A stretch of 64,000 nt of DNA, from NCBI GenBank assembly GCA_949297415.1, contig CASFSV010000007.1, positions 4,932-68,931 on the forward strand. The letters are read 5' to 3'. Source of the stretch: an uncultured Alphaproteobacteria bacterium. GTDB lineage: Bacteria; Pseudomonadota; Alphaproteobacteria; RF32; CAG-239. Numbering within the stretch: the stretch's first letter is position 1; every line of letters starts with the position of its first letter. Under the pieces are notes generated by a model. That model saw nothing but the letters and a program-made list of their open reading frames with translations. It had not been told where the DNA came from and ran no database searches. The translations under genes and the position numbers were made by a program. Positions 25,730 to 40,426 of this stretch are shown in pieces.

Positions 25730-26119
25730 TTAATCTCGAACAAAATTCTTGCTTGCCATTATTACTGAATTTGCCAAATGCTGTGCATTTTCCTCTTTTT
25801 CTTGACCGGTAATATATTTGTTCATCTCGGTTTTGAAAAATTTAACGCCTTTTTTGCTTATTTGTTGATATTTATCGGCAGCCATATTCACACAATCTTG
25901 GTGAGAAGTTCTTAATCCTTGACTTGCATTGAATCTTGCAACTTGCGCATTTAGAGCAACCACCAAATCATTATCGCGTACATTTTGCAAACGATTTTTT
26001 AGAACTTCTTTATCCATAGTTTCTGACAGCAACCCAAAAATAGCTTTTGGGGTTTGACAACCTTCAAGCTTAGCAATAAACTCTTTGCCGTTCAGCTCCT
26101 TTTTTATTTCTTTACTCAT
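25730..26119 (-). CDS. hypothetical protein
   Basis: 129-aa ORF with GGAGGAG upstream. No family recognised. Confidence 0.5.
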   Translation of the reverse strand: MSKEIKKELNGKEFIAKLEGCQTPKAIFGLLSETMDKEVLKNRLQNVRDNDLVVALNAQVARFNASQGLRTSHQDCVNMAADKYQQISKKGVKFFKTEMNKYITGQEKEENAQHLANSVIMASKNFVRD

Positions 26120-26218
26120 GGTTTGCTCCTCCTATAATAATTTTCTTCTATTTATATTTGGAGTATAGCAGATTTTTGAGACCTTGGCAAGGTGTTTTTG
26201 TTACAAAAATGTCATATT

Positions 26219-27112
26219 TTAGTGATTTCTGATTAAAATATATCTTGACAAGCTTTTTAAGGTGTGGGCTTTTTCTCCGAATACAGACAGACTTGTTTCT
26301 GCTTCGTTTATTAGCCGTTCTGCTATATTTTTTGCCCCATTAACACCATATATGCTTACAAAATTCAGTTTATTTTGGGCTTTATCTTTTTTGAGAGTCT
26401 TACCTACTAATTGTTCATCCCCCTCAACATCTAAAATATCATCCGTTATTTGGAACGCTATACCAACATTACGAGAATATTGTATCAGCAATTTTCTTTC
26501 TTCTGCACTCGCATCTCCCAAAATACAACCAGCTTCACACGGATATCTCAATAAACAGCCGGTTTTTAATTCTTCCGTTTGACGAATTATTGTTTCAGGA
26601 TTCGGAAAATCTTTGTGTGTATCCGTATATAAATCAAGAACCTGCCCTGCTATCATCCCCTTAAATGCTCCGGCGGCTTGAGATAGTAAAAGTGTTAATT
26701 CAACCTTCTTGCTATCCTCTATTTTCGCACTATTTAACACCTCAAAAGCATACGTCAATAATCCGTCACCAGCCAGAATCGCTGTTGCTTCATCGAAAGC
26801 CTTATGGCAGGTTGGCTTGCCCCGGCGCATATCATCATTATCCATCGCAGGCAAATCATCATGTATTAGAGAATATGTATGCAACATTTCTAAAGATATA
26901 GCAACCGGCAATGCCTTTTCATATGATACCCCGAACAATTTTGCCGTTTCATGCAATAAAAACGGACGCAATCTTTTGCCTCCGTTCATGACACTGTACC
27001 GCATGGCTTCAACAGCTCGCTGCTCTATATTTCCACTTATAGGAAAATACTTTTCTATATTTTCATTAAACTTCTCGGAATAACTTTTTAATATGCTTTC
27101 TATCTCTGTCAT
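26219..27112 (-). CDS. ispA: farnesyl diphosphate synthase (polyprenyl synthetase family)
   Basis: FARM LIHDDLPAMDNDDMRRG and SARM FQITDDILD motifs. Confidence 0.9.
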   Translation of the reverse strand: MTEIESILKSYSEKFNENIEKYFPISGNIEQRAVEAMRYSVMNGGKRLRPFLLHETAKLFGVSYEKALPVAISLEMLHTYSLIHDDLPAMDNDDMRRGKPTCHKAFDEATAILAGDGLLTYAFEVLNSAKIEDSKKVELTLLLSQAAGAFKGMIAGQVLDLYTDTHKDFPNPETIIRQTEELKTGCLLRYPCEAGCILGDASAEERKLLIQYSRNVGIAFQITDDILDVEGDEQLVGKTLKKDKAQNKLNFVSIYGVNGAKNIAERLINEAETSLSVFGEKAHTLKSLSRYILIRNH

Positions 27113-27154: not shown

Positions 27155-27406
27155 TTATGCTTCGACATTATCCAGAGGAGTGGTACTCAGACTGCCATCT
27201 TTGTTTAATTCTATTTTTTCCACTTTAAGAGTAGCGGCTGCCAACTTATCTGAGCATAATTTTTTCAAAGCCATGGCTTTTTCATAAGCATTTACCGCAT
27301 CATCTAATTTAATGCGACCGCTTTCCAATTCTCTTACAATATTCTCCAACTGAGCTAAAGCATCTTCAAAGCTCAGGTTACTAAAATCTTCCTTTTCTTC
27401 TGCCAT
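27155..27406 (-). CDS. xseB: exodeoxyribonuclease VII small subunit
   Basis: LSFEDALAQLENIVRELESGRIKLDDAVNAYEKA typical XseB helix hairpin. Classic xseB-ispA linkage. Confidence 0.85.
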   Translation of the reverse strand: MAEEKEDFSNLSFEDALAQLENIVRELESGRIKLDDAVNAYEKAMALKKLCSDKLAAATLKVEKIELNKDGSLSTTPLDNVEA

Positions 27407-27408
27407 TT

Positions 27409-28086
27409 TTATCTCCTAATTGTTTGATAGCTTCCGGCCATAAAACCGCCGTCTACGATAATATCTTGTCCGCTAATGAATGTATTGGTCGGATTGCCCA
27501 AAAAATATACCATCTTCGCAATATCTTCTGGTTCTGCCAAACGGTTAATTGCTGTTTTTGCCGCCAACTCCGCTCTTTTCATCTCATTATTGTTTTGTTG
27601 GAACATTTTGGTATTAACAAAACCTGGTGACACCGTATTGCAGAGTACATTATAGGGACCATACTCTAAAGCCAAGGTTTTTATCAAACCAACTAAAGCA
27701 TGTTTAGAACATGTATAGGCAGCGCGTCCTTCTCGCGATATGCTTGCATATAAAGAACCTATTCCCACGATATGACCGCCATGTTCCTTAAAATAAGAAT
27801 CGTTCGCCTTAACAATTTCCAACAAAGAAATGTAATTTATATATTGCGTTTTCATAAACTCTTCCAGAGGTATTTCCGCTGCAGGCATCGGCTTATTATA
27901 ACCTGCACAATGGATGATGACATCAAACTCGGCTCGATGCGTTTCAAACCACTGATGTATCGCTGACATATCCGATAAATCTAATTCTGCGCTTCGAGGA
28001 GCTACAACCTCATATCCGCTATGCAGATACAGTTCCTTTATGGCACTGCCTATTCCTCCTCCCGCTCCGGAAATAAATGCTCTCAT
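27409..28086 (-). CDS. SDR family oxidoreductase
   Basis: ISGAGGGIGSA cofactor motif and YTCSKHAL catalytic YxxxK. Confidence 0.8.
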   Translation of the reverse strand: MRAFISGAGGGIGSAIKELYLHSGYEVVAPRSAELDLSDMSAIHQWFETHRAEFDVIIHCAGYNKPMPAAEIPLEEFMKTQYINYISLLEIVKANDSYFKEHGGHIVGIGSLYASISREGRAAYTCSKHALVGLIKTLALEYGPYNVLCNTVSPGFVNTKMFQQNNNEMKRAELAAKTAINRLAEPEDIAKMVYFLGNPTNTFISGQDIIVDGGFMAGSYQTIRR

Positions 28087-28097
28087 TGTTCCTCCTT

Positions 28098-29519
28098 TCA
28101 GAGTTTTATCAGTTCGATTTCTTTATTCGGTAAATCTTTTACACCAACTCCGAGACTTGCCAATTTATCTCGAATTTCATCAGACTTTGCCCAATTTTTT
28201 GAAGCTCTTGCTTCAGCTCTTTGCTCCAATAATGCCTTAATTTCGGGAGTTACCTCCACCGTTTCTTTCTGTTTTGGGGCAATATCTTTTAAGAATAAAT
28301 GTAATACGCCATCTACGTGCATTAAGAATGCTAAACGCAAACCTGTCGACTTGCTATTATCTTTTACTACATTCCACATATATGACAAGGCTACTGGTGT
28401 TTTTAAATCATCAAACAGATATTCGTTAAATTCAGCTGTTAATTTAGCCAGTTCTTCTTGCTCTTGAGCCGAGAGGTTTTTGTTCTCATTTTCAGCCTTA
28501 AACGTGGCTACATAATCCGCTAAATTCTCATAGGCTTTCTTGGCAGCATCCATCGCTTCATCCGAGAATATCGCAGAACTACGATAGTGTGAGGTTAAGC
28601 AGAAGTATTTATAATGAACAGGCGCATATCCTTTTTCTTTCAACGTATCCAATGTCAAAAATCCGCCTTTTGATTTGCTCATTTTTCCGGACTTGTTATT
28701 CAAAAATTCCATGTGTACCCAAAAATTTACCCATTCATGTCCCAAATGAGCTTCACTTTGAGCGATCTCGTTTTCATGATGAACCGGAATATGGTCAATT
28801 CCACCGCAGTGAATATCTATTCTCTCTCCTAAATACTTCGTTGACATGGCTGAACATTCTATATGCCAACCGGGATAACCTCTTCCCCATGGAGAATCCC
28901 ATTGTAAAATCTGATTTTCAAATTTTGATGAGGTAAACCACAATACGAAATCTGACGGATTGCGTTTATTCATATCTTGCTCCGTACGCGCACCATGTTT
29001 TAAATCATCGCGGCTTTGTCCCGATAAGCAACCATATTTCGGAAACTTTGCTGTATCAAAATAAACATTGCCATTTGAAATGTATGCAAACCCCTTGTTT
29101 TCCAAATCTTTTACAAAATCTATCATATCTTGGATATGTTCGGTTGCACGACATACTACTGTCGGACGAGCCAAGCCTAATTCTTTGGTATGACGGAAAA
29201 ACGCATCTTCATACATTCTGGCAATTTCCAAAACGCTTTTCTTTTCGCGTTCGGCCGCTACTTTCATTTTATCTTCGCCTTCATCGCCATCGCTGGTTAA
29301 GTGGCCAACATCGGTTACATTCATAACGTGTTTCACTTTATAGCCGGCTAATTTCAACATATTAACCAATAAATCTTCAAAAATATAGGTACGCAAATTA
29401 CCAATATGTGCATAGTTATATACAGTCGGACCACAGCAATACATTGTTACCATCGGTGGGTTTAACGGCTTAAATTCATCTTTATTTCTGGTCCTTGTAT
29501 TATATAAATATACACTCAT
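28098..29519 (-). CDS. cysS: cysteine--tRNA ligase
   Basis: CGPTVYNYAHIGNLRTY (HIGH) and KMSKSKG motifs, 473 aa. Confidence 0.95.
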   Translation of the reverse strand: MSVYLYNTRTRNKDEFKPLNPPMVTMYCCGPTVYNYAHIGNLRTYIFEDLLVNMLKLAGYKVKHVMNVTDVGHLTSDGDEGEDKMKVAAEREKKSVLEIARMYEDAFFRHTKELGLARPTVVCRATEHIQDMIDFVKDLENKGFAYISNGNVYFDTAKFPKYGCLSGQSRDDLKHGARTEQDMNKRNPSDFVLWFTSSKFENQILQWDSPWGRGYPGWHIECSAMSTKYLGERIDIHCGGIDHIPVHHENEIAQSEAHLGHEWVNFWVHMEFLNNKSGKMSKSKGGFLTLDTLKEKGYAPVHYKYFCLTSHYRSSAIFSDEAMDAAKKAYENLADYVATFKAENENKNLSAQEQEELAKLTAEFNEYLFDDLKTPVALSYMWNVVKDNSKSTGLRLAFLMHVDGVLHLFLKDIAPKQKETVEVTPEIKALLEQRAEARASKNWAKSDEIRDKLASLGVGVKDLPNKEIELIKL

Positions 29520-29542
29520 TTTCTTTTCCTTCTTATTCTAAC

Positions 29543-29573
29543 AAAAAAGAGACAGTCTTTTTCACGCTGCCTC
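29543..29573 (-). terminator. intrinsic terminator inside the cysS leader (attenuator 3:4 hairpin)
   Basis: Minus strand GAGGCAG-cgtgaaaaaga-CTGTCTC followed by T6. Lies 23 nt upstream of the cysS ATG and before its AAGGAA RBS. Confidence 0.55.
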
Positions 29574-29614
29574 TTTATTTTCCTTTTACAGCTGAAAACA
29601 GCGTGGCAGCAATC

Positions 29615-29662
29615 TTACGCTTTGCTGCTACAACACGCTTTGTTTTCATTTATCTGCAACAT
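29615..29662 (-). CDS. candidate 15-codon leader peptide MLQINENKACCSSKA with tandem Cys codons
   Basis: ATG 29662 preceded by GAGAGGA. Tandem TGT TGT at codons 10-11. The stop TAA lies in the loop of the first hairpin. Confidence 0.45.
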   Translation of the reverse strand: MLQINENKACCSSKA

Positions 29663-29684
29663 TTTTCCTCTCTTTTCGGCTGTT

Positions 29685-29713
29685 AGTTTGAAATGTTTTC
29701 TCCTCTTTGTCAA
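29685..29713 (-). promoter_or_regulatory. candidate promoter of the cysS leader
   Basis: Perfect TTGACA (29713-29708), 17-nt spacer, weak -10 CAAACT (29690-29685). Confidence 0.35.
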
Positions 29714-29859
29714 GACTTTATCCGCCTTAATTACATAAAATTTGTTTTTTCGGTTCGAAAAGTGTTTTTTATGCAAAAAAATCTTGATTCTTTTCTTCCT
29801 TTCACTTATCTTTTTTAGAGTTTTGTAATTTTTATTTTAATCATTAATCTTATTATTCT

Positions 29860-30408
29860 ATGGTACATTTAACTTTTGTTCGTTGTGCTGATTTAAATGC
29901 TTACGGCAGTATTTCTTTGGCTCACGCTAAGGCTTTATTCTTACTTTCTAAACTTGTTGTTGAAAAATGTGGAAAGCCACAAATGCTCTATGCCTCTGGT
30001 AATGATGAAGCTTTGGTTTCGGCTAAAGTGCTTAATCTTAGTTGTTCCATACACGGAATTGTCGAAACATCTGCCCTTAATCATAAGGCTTCTTCCTCGG
30101 ATACAAGAGCTTTTGTAGATTATTTGGAAAAAGAAGCTACGTTAAATAAGGTTTCCCATATTCTCTTAGTTTGCACTCATGAGGCTTTTGCTAAAATTTT
30201 TCACAAAACACCTGTGTTTGCTAATACCTATACGCTCTGTGCTCCTAATTGGGATAATATTCTTCTCAATTATCACGAAATATGGTCACCCTTTGCTACA
30301 GATGATGATGTTTCACATCCCTTGGATGAGGTCTTGAAACTGCCTTGCAGTGCTCATGATGCTTTACTTATCGAAAAAACACTTCATGAGCTCAGTCATG
30401 CTTATTAA
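29860..30408 (+). CDS. hypothetical protein
   Basis: 182-aa ORF followed by a strong terminator. No confident family. Confidence 0.5.
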   Translation: MVHLTFVRCADLNAYGSISLAHAKALFLLSKLVVEKCGKPQMLYASGNDEALVSAKVLNLSCSIHGIVETSALNHKASSSDTRAFVDYLEKEATLNKVSHILLVCTHEAFAKIFHKTPVFANTYTLCAPNWDNILLNYHEIWSPFATDDDVSHPLDEVLKLPCSAHDALLIEKTLHELSHAY

Positions 30409-34702: not shown

Positions 34703-36439
34703 TTAGCATAGATATGTCTTTGCTTGAGATGATTGAGATTTTACCACAGATGATTGGGGTGTCGCCAAGTGGTAAGGCATCGGCTTTTGGTGCCGACATT
34801 CGTTGGTTCGAATCCAGCCACCCCAGCCAAACTGGAGAAGAGTTGCGTTTTTTGACGCAACTCTTTGATTTTTAAAAGCAATTTTCGGCCCGAACGATTT
34901 TGTGTTTTCATCCTTTTTATTATCTTCAATGTCTTGGTTTTCCTCGTTTTGCGAGCCTTGTAAAAATTTGCTTCTTTTTTCGTAAAAATACGCTTTTTCA
35001 AACTCGCTGAACGGAAAATTCAGCTCATACGTCAATTCTCCTTCCGTTAATATCATTTCCTTAAAAACAAATTTTAACAACAGGTGCTTCAACTCAAGAT
35101 TATCGGATTTGGCAAACACTTTTCCTGCCTGCGATGCAAGATTTATGAGATCTAATATCGTTGAAGTGAAGGCATTTCCCGTCTTTTCATAGGTTTTAAT
35201 CTTCCTTCCCATACGGTCAATTTTGAGTTGGATTTCATTGCGCTTGGTTTCAAACGTTTCTCGGTCAAGCTCTCCGTCCAAACGCAAATCAAACAAATTA
35301 TCCAATTTTGCCTTCAATTTCTCCTGTTCCTGTCTCAGTTTTCCGATTTCCTGCTGACAGTATTGTTTTTCTGAAATTTCAGCATTTTTAATCTCTTCAT
35401 ACAACGGATTTATTAAGGAATCCGGTATTTTGATACGGTTTAGGACGGTTTCTATCATGCTTAAAACATCTTGTTCCGGGATGTATCGCCTCTGCCCGGT
35501 TTTGGTGTAACAAACCACCCACGAATAGTATTTTCTTCTCAGTTGATCTTCGCAGGGACAAACCCTTCCCGTTCTTCCGCAGGTGATTAAACCTCTCAGT
35601 ACAAAAGGCTTTTGGCTGTATTTCAGCCCCGCGCCGTTATGATTGTTCAGGGCTTTTTGTTTTTGGCATTGCTCCCAAAGCTCTTGCGAAATCAGCGTCG
35701 GATAAACATGTTTGATAATGCCTCTTTTGGTTTTCATCTCGCCATAATAAAAGGGATTGTCCAATATATAGTAGATACTGGAATTGACCAGTTTTTTGCC
35801 GGCTCTGGTCTTAAGTCCCATTAAATCGGCAAAATGCACGGCTTCCAATATGCTCATCTTACCGAGAGAATAAAGTTCAAATATTTGCTTGATGATACCG
35901 GCTTCCGGTTCTTTAAGGCGAATATTATGCTTTCCCCGCTCGTCGACATAATTTTCATACCCGAGCGGCGCGACACCGCATCTTTCCCCGTTTTTGGTTT
36001 TCAACTCCGTAGAGCGGCGGACATTCTCGGAAAGTTGCAAGACATAGGCTTTGGCTCCCATGACCGAGAAGTCCCAGCGCATGATATCGGCTGAGGTGGA
36101 TTTGCTGTTTAATATCATCCCTTCGCGATAAAAATGCAGCTCAATCTTGTCTTGGCGCATCAGTTCATCAAGAAGCACGCTTTCTTTGAAACTTCTTTGC
36201 ACCCTGTCAACCGTATCGGCCACAATCGCTATGGTTTCCTTTTGTTTCTTGCAAAAATTTATCATCTCCATAAAACGCTTACGTTCGCCGCGGGTGGAAC
36301 TTTCTATAATTTCAAAACGCTTGATAACATCAAGCTCCCTTCTTTCGGCATATTCTTCCAAGCGTTTACTTTGAGCGCGCAGGCTCAATCGCTCTTCCTG
36401 CATTTTGGTTGACACGCGTGTCAGTATGACGGCTTTCAT
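34703..36439 (-). CDS. large serine recombinase (integrase)
   Basis: MKAVILTRVSTKMQ catalytic Ser context, VADTVDRVQRS, recombinase domain GVAPLGYEN, Cys cluster CGRTGRVCPCE..VVC and a C-terminal coiled coil. ATG 36439 is preceded by AGGAG. The last ~45 codons are antisense to the tRNA-Gln terminator and tRNA-Gln. Confidence 0.85.
   Translation of the reverse strand: MKAVILTRVSTKMQEERLSLRAQSKRLEEYAERRELDVIKRFEIIESSTRGERKRFMEMINFCKKQKETIAIVADTVDRVQRSFKESVLLDELMRQDKIELHFYREGMILNSKSTSADIMRWDFSVMGAKAYVLQLSENVRRSTELKTKNGERCGVAPLGYENYVDERGKHNIRLKEPEAGIIKQIFELYSLGKMSILEAVHFADLMGLKTRAGKKLVNSSIYYILDNPFYYGEMKTKRGIIKHVYPTLISQELWEQCQKQKALNNHNGAGLKYSQKPFVLRGLITCGRTGRVCPCEDQLRRKYYSWVVCYTKTGQRRYIPEQDVLSMIETVLNRIKIPDSLINPLYEEIKNAEISEKQYCQQEIGKLRQEQEKLKAKLDNLFDLRLDGELDRETFETKRNEIQLKIDRMGRKIKTYEKTGNAFTSTILDLINLASQAGKVFAKSDNLELKHLLLKFVFKEMILTEGELTYELNFPFSEFEKAYFYEKRSKFLQGSQNEENQDIEDNKKDENTKSFGPKIAFKNQRVASKNATLLQFGWGGWIRTNECRHQKPMPYHLATPQSSVVKSQSSQAKTYLC
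34755..34829 (+). tRNA. tRNA-Gln (anticodon TTG), CCA encoded
   Basis: TGGGGTGTCGCCAAGTGGTAAGGCATCGGCTTTTGGTGCCGACATTCGTTGGTTCGAATCCAGCCACCCCAGCCA. Near-identical architecture to E. coli tRNA-Gln (U1-A72, loop TTTTGGT). Confidence 0.9.
34838..34871 (+). terminator. rho-independent terminator of tRNA-Gln
   Basis: AAGAGTTGCG-ttttttga-CGCAACTCTT (10 bp) followed by TGATTTTT. Confidence 0.75.
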
Positions 36440-36575
36440 TTTCTTTAATCTCCTGTTTGATTGATAACATACACCTTGCAAAACCTGTCAGGTTGCGAAC
36501 ACCTTGTTTCAGTTCCTCCTCGGTTTTGGGAACGGATGCAATGTTTCTCAATGCTTCGGTTAAACTTATTGTCAT
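36366..36575 (-). CDS. small hypothetical ORF upstream of and overlapping the recombinase start
   Basis: 69-aa ORF overlapping the recombinase start by about 74 nt. Could be a small accessory or directionality factor, or spurious. Confidence 0.2.
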   Translation of the reverse strand: MTISLTEALRNIASVPKTEEELKQGVRNLTGFARCMLSIKQEIKENESRHTDTRVNQNAGRAIEPARSK

Positions 36576-36636
36576 TTTATCTTTCCCTTAATCGAACTCA
36601 ATCTAATATATTGTTTTGTCCTGGTTTTATTGCAAA

Positions 36637-36660
36637 GGGGGCTTATTTTTGATAAGCCCC
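36637..36660 (-). terminator. hairpin downstream of 36673-37248 gene
   Basis: GGGGCTTAT-ttttg-ATAAGCCCC. Weak U-run on the minus strand. Confidence 0.4.
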
Positions 36661-36672
36661 GGACACTTTTAA

Positions 36673-37248
36673 TTAAACCCGTTCAGAAACATATTGATTC
36701 TGTCCGTTTTGGCGGGTAGCTTCAGATTGTATGTACATTTCATGAAGCATCGGTTCAGCGGCGGCAAGCGTCCTCTGCCTTGTTTCCTCTACTTTTCGAG
36801 CATATTCTTCCTGTTTTTCCTTGGCTTTTTGCTCGCGTTCGGCTTTTTTCTTATTTTTCCGGCGCTCATTGGCTTCTTTTTTGCGTACCGCGGCATTATC
36901 AATCTCTTTAGCCAGAAAGTCGGTAATGTCCTCATTAAACTCGCCGGCCTCAACACTGTTGTAAAAATCAAACAGAAAGCTTATTTTCTGCTGAGTATCC
37001 AGCAAATCCAGTGAATAGCGGACAATGCGTTTGCCGCCCAGACGAAGCGTAAAGATTGAATTCTTTTCCGTATCAATAATCAGCTTGTTCATGCGGTTTT
37101 GCAAATTCCAGCTGTCTTCCTTGAAGTTTCTGATATTATCGGTCAACAGTTTCAAAATCCGTTCTTTGGCCGTTTCCAAGGTCAGCTTGCCTTCGTCTTT
37201 TGAGGTTTCAATCTTAAAAGCGTTATATTTTTCCAAAAAGTTTTTCAT
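36673..37248 (-). CDS. hypothetical protein with K/E-rich C-terminal tail
   Basis: ATG 37248 (MKNFLEKY) preceded by AAAGGAAAA. No family recognised. Confidence 0.55.
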   Translation of the reverse strand: MKNFLEKYNAFKIETSKDEGKLTLETAKERILKLLTDNIRNFKEDSWNLQNRMNKLIIDTEKNSIFTLRLGGKRIVRYSLDLLDTQQKISFLFDFYNSVEAGEFNEDITDFLAKEIDNAAVRKKEANERRKNKKKAEREQKAKEKQEEYARKVEETRQRTLAAAEPMLHEMYIQSEATRQNGQNQYVSERV

Positions 37249-37367
37249 TTTAATTTTCCTTTCTAAAGTAGGGTTTTTGTTAAAAAAGAGCATAATAATT
37301 CTGTATGGCGCTTTGGTATCCCCTCCGAGCCATTGGGGCTAAATATTTAATTTTGTTAGAAAATCAG

Positions 37368-37805
37368 TTAATTATGGCAATCTGTCACATAAACCACGTC
37401 ATCGGCGGCAAACGGACAGCGCTTTTCGGTTACGTAATAAAAATCTCCGGCCGCGGAAATAAAGGCATAAACACCGCGCGGGTCGGCAATGACATCTTTA
37501 TAGCGTCTGATGCCTTTGATGACAAAGCTGTCAAAATGGGTTGATACTTTTTCATAGATTTTGCGGTCATCTCCAAAAGCAAACCCGTGTTGACGTAAAA
37601 TGCCGTCCTGCTCATCAACGGTTCGGGCTTCGTCGGTATCAATGCCTTCATCGGCGGCAAATGCTGCAAAATCGGCATAACGCGCAAGCTTCCAACATCC
37701 GTATTGATGAACCGCTTCGTCTGCCACCGGCATAAATCCCTGCAATTTATTGAGCAATTCTTCCGGTGTGAAATCGGCGGTTTTGGCAACCAGTCGGTAA
37801 TGCAT
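37368..37805 (-). CDS. hypothetical protein (island backbone, GC-rich)
   Basis: ATG 37805 (MHYRLVAK) preceded by AGGAGAAAAG. Chosen over the overlapping 37430-38023 ORF, whose product is C/R/K/P-rich and looks out of frame. Confidence 0.5.
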   Translation of the reverse strand: MHYRLVAKTADFTPEELLNKLQGFMPVADEAVHQYGCWKLARYADFAAFAADEGIDTDEARTVDEQDGILRQHGFAFGDDRKIYEKVSTHFDSFVIKGIRRYKDVIADPRGVYAFISAAGDFYYVTEKRCPFAADDVVYVTDCHN

Positions 37806-38058
37806 GACTTTTCTCCTAGCAGGCAAAACGGGCAGCGTTGAGAAGATTTTTCAGGTTTTCTGCTTCTTTTTTGAAACGATATTTTTTCAGCAAAGAAGCA
37901 ATAATGTAGGTTAATATGGTCATTTTGTTTTCCTTTCGGTTTAATCGTTAAATTATGGCATTGCTGCCTGACACGGTTAGTATGAGAGAAAAACAAAACG
38001 CAAGTCAACAGATTGTTTTTCAAGGTTTTTCTCGAAACTCGTTTTTAAATGTATTTAA

Positions 38059-38457
38059 ATGGATATGTGTGGATATAGCGGGGTAAAAAGTTTTGCAGAG
38101 TTTTGCTTAAAACCGGATAATTTTGTTTCAATCAGCAAAAGAATCGCAGAATCGGATAAAAAAGTAGACATTCAGACTTCAGAAGTAGACATTGAAACAC
38201 CAAAAGTAGACATTGGACGTATCTGTAAAAATAAAATCCCTGGTATTACTGAAAAATCTATTCAACATGTTATTAAAATGTATGACAAATATACGACGGT
38301 CGGATGTTTTGGGCGCTCAGACGTTACCGCACTCTTAAACTTAAGCCCAGCCATGACATCAAGGCTGCTTAAAACCTTGTTGGATAATCACATCATTGAG
38401 CCGGTTAAAGGTTTAGGCAAAGGAAAATATCGGTTTTCGGCCAAGCATAACGATTAA
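38059..38457 (+). CDS. hypothetical winged-helix DNA-binding protein
   Basis: C-terminal DVTALLNLSPAMTSRLLKTLLDNHIIEPVKGLGKGKYRF is wHTH-like. Contains a 3x21-bp in-frame repeat (KVDIQTS EVDIETP KVDIG). Confidence 0.5.
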   Translation: MDMCGYSGVKSFAEFCLKPDNFVSISKRIAESDKKVDIQTSEVDIETPKVDIGRICKNKIPGITEKSIQHVIKMYDKYTTVGCFGRSDVTALLNLSPAMTSRLLKTLLDNHIIEPVKGLGKGKYRFSAKHND

Positions 38458-38779
38458 CATGTCCGTAAATATCTTTTTATCGCTTTACCCGCACAAATCA
38501 TAAGAAATGGAAAGGTATTACGATAAAAAATTTATCAATATTAATGAATTAATAGACAATATCATTAACTTGCAAAGACATGCTAAAGGTGTATAAAATA
38601 CGCTATGCTTAATGTGAAAGAAGAACTGCTTATAGCAGAGTAAAAAGTTTTAAAACTTTTATTGTAAAATAGGTATTTTGATAGATTTTGATTATGAATC
38701 GGAAAATTTTTGATGTTAAAAGAAATTAAACCTATATACGATATTGATTATTATAGGTTGGTTTTGAGGTAGAAAAAAG

Positions 38780-40426
38780 ATGTCATGGATTAATATTAAA
38801 GATTACCAATTTGAAAAAGATACATATATGAATGCGGCAAAAGTTGACGAAGAAATCTCATCGTTAAACCAACATAATATTGAAAAATTTAGTTTTGAAT
38901 TTCAAAATACTGTTGTTGATGATGTTTTGTTAAGAGAATATGCCAAAAGTCTTGCTGAACCAATACAACAAGGCGAATTTGTATATTGTGACAGCATTGA
39001 GCAACTTAAAGAATTTTGCCAACTGTTTATGATGAGACTATCAGATGTTTTTTTAAGATTAAGAAATCCTGATATTGAAAAAGTAGGCAGTTCTATCCAA
39101 AACTTAATAGCTCATTTTGATGAATATGTAAAAGAAACAGGAGATAATTATAAAACTTTCCAATCAGTAAAGGAATTTCTTATTAGCCTTCCATCTAAAG
39201 AAGAAGACCCTATAAGGGTTAGAGATGAATATTTAGATCAATATTACCCTTATTATGCTGATGCTCTCAAAGCATTCTTGTCCATTTTAGCGACAATATT
39301 CAACTATAATTTAAAACAGCCCAATTTACCACCTGAGGAGTTAAAGTTATACGAAAAAAGAGGATATAGTCGCAATTTTATAGCCAATGATGAACGCAAA
39401 TTAAAAACGTTTTTGGCTGATTTTGAGAAAGAATATTGTTTTGCAAAACAAGAGCCTTATTTAACTTTTGAAAATCCTTGTGTAGACATAGAGTTAAAAT
39501 CTCTGGGATTTAACAATTTATGCTTACATCTAAAAAATATGAAAATTGCTTCTGGGGATGAGAATGTTAGCTTATTTGCGTTTATTGATTATGTAGATAT
39601 CAGGACGGTAATTTTTGAAAATTGTTACTTCAGCGGAGCAGAATGCCTGTTTCTAAGAAGTAAATCTTTTATGTTCAAAAATTGTACTTTCAATTGCAAA
39701 CTTAATTATTGGGAAAGGGGGTTCGCTAGAAACTTTCAAACAATAATAAGTTTATTAAAATTTGAAAACTGTACATTCAATGATAACTTTGAGATTGATA
39801 AAATACAAAAGGGATGCTATTCAGCTATTATTTTGAGAAATTGTACTTTTTCAGAACAGGCAAATTTTTCGTTATCCAATATATCCAAATTGAAAATTAT
39901 TTTCAGCAATACTATTTTTGGTGGTAAGGTATCTTTTTCGGACATACACTTTCATTATGGACAGTTTTGTAATATCATATTCTTAAATGAATTTAGAGTT
40001 AAAAACATTACGTTTACTACTCATGTTGATTTTAAGCAGATTGTATTTTCAGCAAACGTTGTAAAAACTATGAGTAATTCTATCCGCTCATTTGTAAAAG
40101 CATTAGAAGATAATGGGTTTAATGATTATGCCGCAGAATTGGCTGAATTTTATTTAAACGATTTAAATAGTGCTAAAAAACAAGAAGAATTTGACATTGC
40201 TGCGCGTTCAAACTGGCTCAATATCAAGCAAACGGCAGCATTTTTAGGGATTTCATACGCCACCCTGCTCGCCATGCGCAAAGAAGATAAGGCCGACGGT
40301 ATCCGCCGCATTCCCTACATCGGCGAAGGCAAAAGCTCCCGCTACTATCTCCCCCTCCTCGAAGCCTACAAAAGCAGGGATATGGATTTGGTTAATAAAC
40401 TGGCAAAAAAAATAGAGGGGAAGTAA
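38780..40426 (+). CDS. chimeric protein: unknown N-domain + pentapeptide-like beta-helix repeats + C-terminal Xis/AlpA-type HTH
   Basis: Repeats of F(E/K)NCTF...F every ~20-25 aa (aa 285-430). C-terminus NIKQTAAFLGISYATLLAMRKED...IPYIGEGKSSRYY resembles excisionase/MerR-type HTH_17. Confidence 0.6.
   Translation: MSWINIKDYQFEKDTYMNAAKVDEEISSLNQHNIEKFSFEFQNTVVDDVLLREYAKSLAEPIQQGEFVYCDSIEQLKEFCQLFMMRLSDVFLRLRNPDIEKVGSSIQNLIAHFDEYVKETGDNYKTFQSVKEFLISLPSKEEDPIRVRDEYLDQYYPYYADALKAFLSILATIFNYNLKQPNLPPEELKLYEKRGYSRNFIANDERKLKTFLADFEKEYCFAKQEPYLTFENPCVDIELKSLGFNNLCLHLKNMKIASGDENVSLFAFIDYVDIRTVIFENCYFSGAECLFLRSKSFMFKNCTFNCKLNYWERGFARNFQTIISLLKFENCTFNDNFEIDKIQKGCYSAIILRNCTFSEQANFSLSNISKLKIIFSNTIFGGKVSFSDIHFHYGQFCNIIFLNEFRVKNITFTTHVDFKQIVFSANVVKTMSNSIRSFVKALEDNGFNDYAAELAEFYLNDLNSAKKQEEFDIAARSNWLNIKQTAAFLGISYATLLAMRKEDKADGIRRIPYIGEGKSSRYYLPLLEAYKSRDMDLVNKLAKKIEGK

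Follow-up and report, generated by a model that had tools for sequence, protein, structure and literature searches.

The closest described counterpart of the element reported here is the uORFC-8-2 motif, known from 145 examples found exclusively upstream of the cysteine--tRNA ligase gene cysS in Rhodobacterales (Brewer et al. 2021, RNA Biol 18:2417, PMC8632094). In this motif an upstream open reading frame (uORF) carries a tandem pair of Cys codons, as a rule at positions 14-15 and drawn from both UGC and UGU. The Cys codons lie in the first of two stems, and a terminator with its U-run makes up the second; the authors read the motif as ribosome-mediated attenuation, as a computational prediction (PMC8632094). 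Here we describe the leader of cysS on the minus strand of a 64,000-nucleotide stretch of DNA (hereafter the window; assembly GCA_949297415.1, contig CASFSV010000007.1, positions 4,932 to 68,931) from an uncultured member of the Alphaproteobacteria. On computational evidence, the element is very probably a classical ribosome-mediated transcription attenuator that tunes cysS to the supply of Cys-tRNA-Cys. It has in common with uORFC-8-2 the cysS target, the class Alphaproteobacteria, a uORF with tandem Cys codons, a stem holding the Cys codons followed by a terminator stem, the regulatory logic, and the standing of a prediction. The two differ in their hosts (Rhodobacterales for the one, uncultured gut and rumen Alphaproteobacteria for the other) and in the Cys run, which in the window leader and its relatives comprises 2-5 consecutive codons starting at codons 7-10 of 12-16, rather than two at 14-15; an antiterminator and a spacing are worked out for the family of the window, and neither is described for uORFC-8-2 (PMC8632094). 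The original prediction, made from the letters of the window alone, had been aware of no established Cys-codon attenuator of cysS in proteobacteria, a suggestion of novelty that fails given the candidate motif already published for Rhodobacterales (PMC8632094). Our comparison uses the published description of uORFC-8-2, and the two elements may be either homologous or convergent. Because gene, sensor codon and architecture are common to both, while clade, Cys-run length and Cys-run position differ, the window leader is a lineage-specific new case of a known type, Cys-codon attenuation of cysS, and the mechanism itself is not new.

More distant systems place the element further. The regulatory codon pair lies at codons 10-11 both in Escherichia coli trpL and in the window leader, which further resembles trpL in its four-region logic with mutually exclusive 1:2, 2:3 and 3:4 pairings, in tandem regulatory codons near the end of the open reading frame (ORF), in a stop codon just before region 2, and in an intrinsic terminator. 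The trpL leader, however, senses Trp and controls a biosynthetic operon, whereas the window leader would sense Cys ahead of a synthetase gene; the sequences are dissimilar, and the Rfam Trp_leader family gives no match to the window leader. In E. coli pheST, the pheM leader peptide attenuates the cognate synthetase gene, and more synthetase is made when charging is low. The likeness here is leader-peptide transcription attenuation of a cognate aminoacyl-tRNA synthetase gene; pheST differs in using Phe codons, in belonging to the gammaproteobacteria, and in its unrelated sequence. Firmicutes regulate cysS by T-boxes, and the Cys T-boxes (cysS/cysES) resemble the window leader in taking tRNA-Cys charging as their signal and in acting by antitermination upstream of cysS. 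A T-box binds tRNA directly and without translation, whereas the window leader, with a predicted RNA of about 135 nt, is predicted to be translation-based. T-box and known Rfam leader families were considered as candidates and rejected: Rfam 15, scanned over the whole window at gathering thresholds and over 29300-30000 with E values up to 10, gave two tRNAs elsewhere (genes at 513-586 and 34755-34826, the sole matches of the window at gathering threshold) and noise. Mycobacteria, too, sense cysteine supply through consecutive Cys codons in a small ORF ahead of the regulated genes: their polycysteine leaderless short ORFs (sORFs) are experimentally supported as cysteine-responsive attenuators (Canestrari et al. 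2020, bioRxiv 10.1101/834739). These unmask a downstream ribosome-binding site and control cysteine-metabolism operons (10.1101/834739), in contrast to the window leader, which has an ORF led by a Shine-Dalgarno (SD) sequence, a predicted 5' untranslated region, an intrinsic terminator, and cysS as its target. The SD of cysS is unpaired and lies outside all predicted helices of the leader, which argues against ribosome-binding site sequestration of the mycobacterial type. Cys-codon leader peptides have been predicted upstream of actinobacterial cys operons as well (PMC1262725).

Taken on its own, the window copy offers modest evidence that is merely suggestive; the comparative evidence is decisive. 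All of the minus-strand elements named by the original prediction are present base for base where it had placed them (Table 1), among them the perfect -35 hexamer TTGACA at 29713-29708, which is in fact CTTGACA from 29714 and is paired with a weak -10. For the 140-nt leader the predicted folding energy is -39.5 kcal/mol (z = -2.88). Cys accounts for 1.0% of residues across the long ORFs of the window, and Cys-Cys occurs in 11 of its 846 ATG-initiated mini-ORFs of 8-30 codons, two of the 11 having an SD-like sequence. A consensus scan of the window called neither the leader promoter, because its -10 (CAAACT) is weak, nor the terminator, because its loop of 11 nt exceeds 8 nt; comparative analysis recovered both.

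Relatives were found by scanning species-representative genomes with the CysS protein. The resulting family numbers 40 leaders, that of the window and those of 39 species representatives whose CysS is 76-97% identical to it. The same leader is present in all 39 of these loci, always upstream of cysS. Its carriers are metagenome-assembled genomes (MAGs) of uncultured gut and rumen Alphaproteobacteria. Their labels vary between Alphaproteobacteria, "Acetobacter sp. 46_36," Rickettsiales and Rhodospirillales, and none bears the label Rhodobacterales; they probably correspond to the GTDB order RF32. Beyond this range of identity the leader is absent, both from six loci with CysS 59-64% identical and from all other phyla, and a covariance model, R1, finds no match in the more distant cysS loci L038-L045 (CysS identity of 64% or less), in other phyla, or in Sphingomonas, Sinorhizobium and Paracoccus. 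A pattern scan of metagenomes returned 80 loci, of which 15 pass model R1 at 82-109 bits; cysS lies immediately downstream in every one of the 14 R1-passing loci with enough flanking sequence.

Across the family the parts recur in a constant order. The promoter layout is CTTGACA, 17 nt, then CAAAnT (A2 in 39, A4 in 36 and T6 in 36 of the 40 leaders), with the ATG of the leader ORF 16-33 nt further on (47 in L005); in the window, transcription would start at about 29678. In 40/40 leaders an SD precedes the ATG of an ORF that is 12-16 codons long and contains a run of 2-5 consecutive Cys codons, which starts at codons 7-10 and in which TGT and TGC interchange. The stop codon follows 2-4 codons past the last Cys in all 40, and differences in ORF length are in whole codons. 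Outside the Cys run the leader peptides are essentially unrelated, as the window peptide MLQINENKACCSSKA and the relatives MLTVTVISFCCCCNS, MYINFNCCCCCQTS and MQNKNICCCRSS illustrate. The motif GCUGCC stands 4-7 nt past the stop codon in 31/40 leaders and is replaced by covarying variants in the remainder, and a hairpin of the form GGCAGC-loop-GCUGCC with a U-run lies 20-45 nt before cysS across the family (in the window, the U-run ends 23 nt ahead of the cysS ATG). In a comparison of cysS leaders, the check proposed with the original prediction, the mini-ORF with its Cys run is kept in 40/40, and so are region 2 and the terminator.

The pairings of the proposed switch, in which region 2 pairs with either region 1 or region 3, and region 3 with either region 2 or region 4, were examined one by one. 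For the terminator (3:4), the RNAalifold consensus on a MAFFT alignment is the terminator itself, with compensatory changes in 3 of 7 pairs, and terminator hairpins have a mean z of -3.7 in the family. For the antiterminator (2:3), each RNA was ended before region 4 and folded as if a ribosome occupied the last Cys codon (mask of the A-site codon plus 10 nt). Under these conditions of a Cys stall, the segment after the stop codon pairs with the 5' arm of the terminator in 37/40 sequences; the other three are artefacts of the RNA end chosen, L005 and L024 having kept the whole terminator and L006 having a 2:3 helix that went uncounted. On the MAFFT alignment the six 2:3 pairs (GCUGCC:GGCAGC) are 98.7% paired, versus 12-60% in controls with the partner shifted by 1-3 columns. 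Two of the six vary in a compensatory way, with A-U in place of G-C in L017 and U-A in place of C-G in L032 and L034-36, and L023 has an additional GCC/GGC variant of the helix. Complementarity, conservation and compensatory changes together bear out the alternative pairing of GCTGCC (29610-05) with GGCAGC (29572-67) that had been predicted. A second register proposed for the same switch, CACGCTG (29605-599) with CAGCGTG (29569-63), fares less well: the two are complementary in the window, but the pairing is not kept, the closest relatives having CAGCCTG, and it was rejected as a family feature and regarded as specific to the window.

The anti-antiterminator (1:2) is not recovered by RNAalifold on the MAFFT alignment, which yields the terminator only. 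It was detected through folds of individual sequences, an arm-swap test and alignment to the covariance model. In folds of the free RNA, codons 2-14 of the ORF pair with region 2 and about 20 nt beyond it, which places the Cys codons in the upper part of the 5' arm and the stop codon in the loop. The 7-bp helix GCAGCAA/TTGCTGC that had been proposed as the 1:2 hairpin is therefore present, but the real hairpin (29659-29586) is far longer and takes in most of the ORF. The segment has a mean z of -2.0, negative in 39/40 sequences. In the arm-swap test, which is free of alignment, the ORF arm preceding the Cys run binds its own post-stop arm at -11.3 kcal/mol, versus -7.2 for the arms of other genomes; none of 5000 permutations attains the observed value, and the result holds in a non-redundant subset of 21 sequences. 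In an alignment fitted to model R1, 79.5% of cells are paired versus 38-53% in slid controls, 85 cells are compensatory versus 40 in shuffles, and the main 1:2 helix has double changes in 7 of 9 pairs. Judged from these comparisons of sequence, the two arms of the hairpin are co-evolving. Folding of the alternative structures, likewise proposed as a check, has recovered the 1:2, 2:3 and 3:4 pairings.

Spacing connects these pairings to the position of a ribosome. Region 2 occupies +3 to +16 nt (median +7 to +14) counted from the first base of the stop codon, and, measured from where the last Cys codon opens, it starts at +15 to +22 nt (median 18.5). Counting from the first A-site base, a ribosome extends about 12-15 nt in the 3' direction. 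Given this footprint, a ribosome terminating at the stop codon would cover region 2, and one stalled on any of the Cys codons would leave region 2 free with the 5' arm of 1:2 open. Such spacing would be exactly that of trp-type decision logic.

The proposed mechanism runs as follows. Transcription would begin at the conserved CTTGACA-N17-CAAAnT promoter, and a ribosome would translate the 15-codon leader ORF of the window. When Cys-tRNA-Cys is plentiful, the ribosome would get to the stop codon, where its footprint would mask region 2 (GCUGCC); after its release, the ORF would re-pair with region 2 and the sequence that follows into the long 1:2 hairpin. With region 2 either masked or held in 1:2, region 3 (GGCAGC) would be free for region 4, the terminator would form, and transcription would end in the U-run, at about 29543. 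When Cys-tRNA-Cys is scarce, the ribosome would stall on the Cys codons and open the 5' arm of 1:2, its 3' edge stopping short of region 2. Region 2 would then pair with region 3 as soon as the latter is transcribed, no terminator would form, and RNA polymerase would enter cysS, with read-through that probably extends into the SDR (short-chain dehydrogenase), xseB and ispA genes downstream. The elements themselves, their conservation, the alternative pairings, the covariation and the spacing are shown by the sequence comparisons; we infer that the ORF is translated and that ribosomes stall on it, as well as how far their footprint reaches, the sequence in which the RNA folds during transcription, and how the cell responds. 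What argues for the attenuator is the conserved ORF with its Cys run, the mutually exclusive pairings with compensatory changes, the co-evolving arms of 1:2, and the spacing that matches them. Over 40 leaders, then, conservation, covariation and spacing all support the four-region attenuator sensing charged tRNA-Cys ahead of cysS that had been predicted from a single copy.

Several observations weigh against this interpretation. The window leader has a poor -10 hexamer and is the weakest of the family, with two Cys codons only (as also in L013 and L016), and its Cys codons are followed by AGC AGC where relatives have TGC and GGC. The 2:3 helix varies so little that its covariation comes down to few independent events. 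The alignment used for the 1:2 pair counts was fitted to the structure, and is biased toward it by construction. Finally, the full-length minimum-energy fold keeps the terminator in about 34/40 sequences despite the mask at the Cys codons. Since the terminator stays the thermodynamic minimum, read-through must depend on 2:3 forming before region 4 is transcribed, as it does in classical systems such as E. coli trp.

Four other explanations were weighed against attenuation by Cys-tRNA-Cys supply. The leader might act mainly through translation or Rho polarity, or might sense some other signal (translation rate, or guanosine tetraphosphate), with the Cys codons adding little specificity. The mycobacterial polycysteine sORFs, which unmask a ribosome-binding site rather than use a terminator (10.1101/834739), offer a model for this, and any slowing of leader translation would favour the antiterminator. 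The explanation is nonetheless improbable, as a canonical hairpin with a U-run is kept in all 40 leaders, the cysS SD falls outside every predicted helix, and the sole type of residue enriched in every leader is the amino acid of the synthetase being regulated. Less probable again is that the mini-ORF is a separate small gene for a Cys-rich peptide (with a metal or redox role, for example) followed by its own terminator, cysS being reached by basal read-through or from another promoter, and selection on the Cys codons acting for the peptide instead of for stalling. A poly-Cys peptide kept in 40/40 leaders, and a terminator strong enough to be the thermodynamic minimum in most folds, would suit such a gene. 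Its product, however, would be unconserved outside a Cys run that itself varies from 2 to 5 residues, and neither the covariation of GCUGCC with the terminator nor the distance between ORF and region 2, constant within a few nucleotides, would have a purpose in a free-standing gene. The element also sits always directly upstream of cysS, even where the neighbours have changed, and the 23 nt from T-run to cysS hold no alternative promoter.

An element of RNA alone (a riboswitch, a T-box-like structure or a protein-binding site), in which the UGU/UGC repeats are structural and the ORF incidental, is highly unlikely. The Cys codons are part of the 1:2 hairpin, so that pairing could account for their conservation, and T-boxes do govern cysS in Firmicutes; against this, the ATG is invariant and preceded by an SD, the Cys run is always in frame with ATG and stop, leader ORFs change in length by whole codons, no Rfam family including the T-box matches at E up to 10, and beyond the two helices there is no conserved core resembling a ligand pocket. 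A chance arrangement of hairpin, T-run and short ORF in an AT-rich genome, for which it could be said that Cys-Cys mini-ORFs are not rare in the window and that the fold z is only -2.9, has next to no probability and is already refuted by conservation in 40 species-level genomes and in metagenome contigs, with covariation and fixed spacing.

Table 1. Features of the cysS leader and of the genes that follow it in the window (window coordinates).
Feature	Position	Strand	Details
-35 element CTTGACA	29708..29714	minus	kept in 38/40 leaders; TTTGACA in L006; L005 without TTGACA there
-10-like hexamer CAAACT	29685..29690	minus	17 nt past the -35; family consensus CAAAnT
SD of leader ORF, GAGAGGA	29666..29672	minus	GGA/GAGG purine motif about 4-10 nt before the ATG in nearly all 40 leaders
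Leader mini-ORF MLQINENKACCSSKA with stop codon	29615..29662	minus	15 codons; ATG 29662, TAA 29617-15
Tandem Cys codons TGT TGT	29635-29630	minus	inside mini-ORF MLQINENKACCSSKA
GCAGCAA (region 1) and TTGCTGC (region 2)	29628-22 and 29612-06	minus	9-nt loop between them contains the stop codon
1:2 hairpin (anti-antiterminator)	29586..29659	minus	5' arm 29659-29622, loop 29621-29613, 3' arm 29612-29586
Region 2 core GCTGCC	29605..29610	minus	partner is region 1 or region 3
Region 3, terminator 5' arm	29563..29576	minus	AAAGAGGCAGC at 29576-29566; GGCAGC at 29572-67
GAGGCAGCGTG	29573-63	minus	region 3 of the original prediction; final bases sit in the terminator loop
Region 4, terminator 3' arm CTGTCTCTTT with T-run	29543..29557	minus	T-run 29548-29543
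CTGTCTC followed by T6	29555-49 and 29548-43	minus	
SD of cysS, AAGGA	29527..29531	minus	7 nt from the ATG; outside every predicted leader helix
cysS, cysteine--tRNA ligase	28098..29519	minus	473 aa; Pfam tRNA-synt_1e, E 1.7e-96; ATG 29519
SDR	27409-28086	minus	Pfam
xseB	27155-27406	minus	Pfam
ispA-like polyprenyl synthase	26219-27112	minus	Pfam

The genes downstream of cysS in the window are separated by gaps of 11 nt (cysS/SDR), 2 nt (SDR/xseB) and 42 nt (xseB/ispA), and SDR, xseB and ispA are probably co-transcribed with cysS. No convincing internal terminator was found between cysS and ispA in the window, so that co-regulation of SDR-xseB-ispA is plausible, though inferred. The order cysS-(SDR)-xseB-ispA, followed by the gene for a 129-aa hypothetical protein, is kept in 30/39 relatives; in nine loci the downstream genes differ and the leader is still present, and the leader therefore seems to track cysS rather than its downstream neighbours. 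The SDR gene is found in a subset of relatives only (the window, L001-L009, L011, L024, L030, L040 and L043; otherwise xseB comes 10-30 nt after cysS), and therefore looks like an insertion into the operon. The 129-aa ORF itself (25730-26119, downstream of ispA) has no Pfam match and is kept in most relatives at 30-92% identity. At 26162-26190, ahead of this ORF, stands a sequence much like a promoter (TTGCCA-17-TATACT, TG upstream), which makes separate transcription of the ORF possible.

The CysS protein of the window, outside its own clade, is nearest to MAG proteins of Cloacimonadota, Elusimicrobia, Clostridia and Peregrinibacteria, at 50-55% identity in a pattern-limited scan, and shares 43-46% identity with CysS of Sphingomonas or Burkholderia. 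Its closeness to non-proteobacterial proteins gives a hint, within the limits of that scan, of horizontal acquisition of cysS.

Candidate leaders were also seen at other loci. A Sphingomonas parapaucimobilis plasmid (NZ_CP155753.1; L081:1242-1460) has a 388-nt rpsU-cysS gap containing an ORF (ATG 1242 or 1266, stop 1344-46) with tandem TGC TGC at 1278-1283, followed by very stable hairpins (fold z -4.5). One of these is terminator-like, CCCCGGUUCCGG...CCGGACCGGGG and then CCUCUUUC, and the locus gives no match to model R1; it may represent another Cys-leader of cysS, in Sphingomonadales, and hints that such leaders are more widely distributed. In Sinorhizobium meliloti (CP090106.1; L083:630-674) an SD-led mini-ORF, MKTVICIICRNIIR, lies about 110 nt upstream of cysS; it contains two separated Cys and five Ile, with no clear terminator by eye. 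A tblastn search of plasmids returned a Paracoccus cysS with an upstream gap of merely 49 nt, and this gene then seeded a protein search; none of the cysS copies obtained in Paracoccus (L082, L084) or in cobW/Fur contexts (L085, L206-L209) has a leader. The Paracoccus copies (L082, L084) come about 45-50 nt after an oxidoreductase gene. A second type of cysS, placed right after cobW, occurs in Poseidonocella and in contigs of marine Alphaproteobacteria; L207-L209, which are marine, have a Fur-family gene upstream, and the cysS can be followed by thrS, sufE or nifU. We take this cobW-linked arrangement to resemble that of zinc-starvation (Zur) paralogues. Within the window itself, further leader-peptide attenuators were sought as a mini-ORF plus a terminator just before a long ORF, and no convincing case emerged. 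Elsewhere in the window, GC and AT skew switch sign at about 36000-40000, with the minimum of cumulative GC skew near 36 kb; such a sign change is a signature of a replication origin or terminus inside the window.

A broader, joint reading would be that the leader arose independently of the Rhodobacterales motif, that it ties the cysS-xseB-ispA operon to cysteine or tRNA-Cys status, and that it may act in trans as well; we regard this combination as speculative and rather unlikely as a whole. If independent origin is true, Cys-codon attenuation of cysS would have arisen two or more times in a single class. If the operon link is true, isoprenoid precursor synthesis and exonuclease VII would be tied to cysteine or tRNA-Cys status. 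The rhizobial trpL transcript acts in trans, and the terminated leader RNA of the cysS element, expected to be abundant, or its poly-Cys peptide, might also do so.

The family described here provides a second clearly documented lineage in which cysS appears to be under a Cys-codon leader peptide instead of a T-box, and it supports the view that leader-peptide attenuation of synthetase genes is commoner in Alphaproteobacteria than model organisms suggest. With 40 or more sequences, 2-5 Cys codons, fixed spacing and three covarying helices, it is unusually clean material for an Rfam-type model and for putting rules of attenuation to the test. For uncultured gut Alphaproteobacteria, the ratio of leader to cysS coverage in metatranscriptomes would report cysteine limitation in situ.

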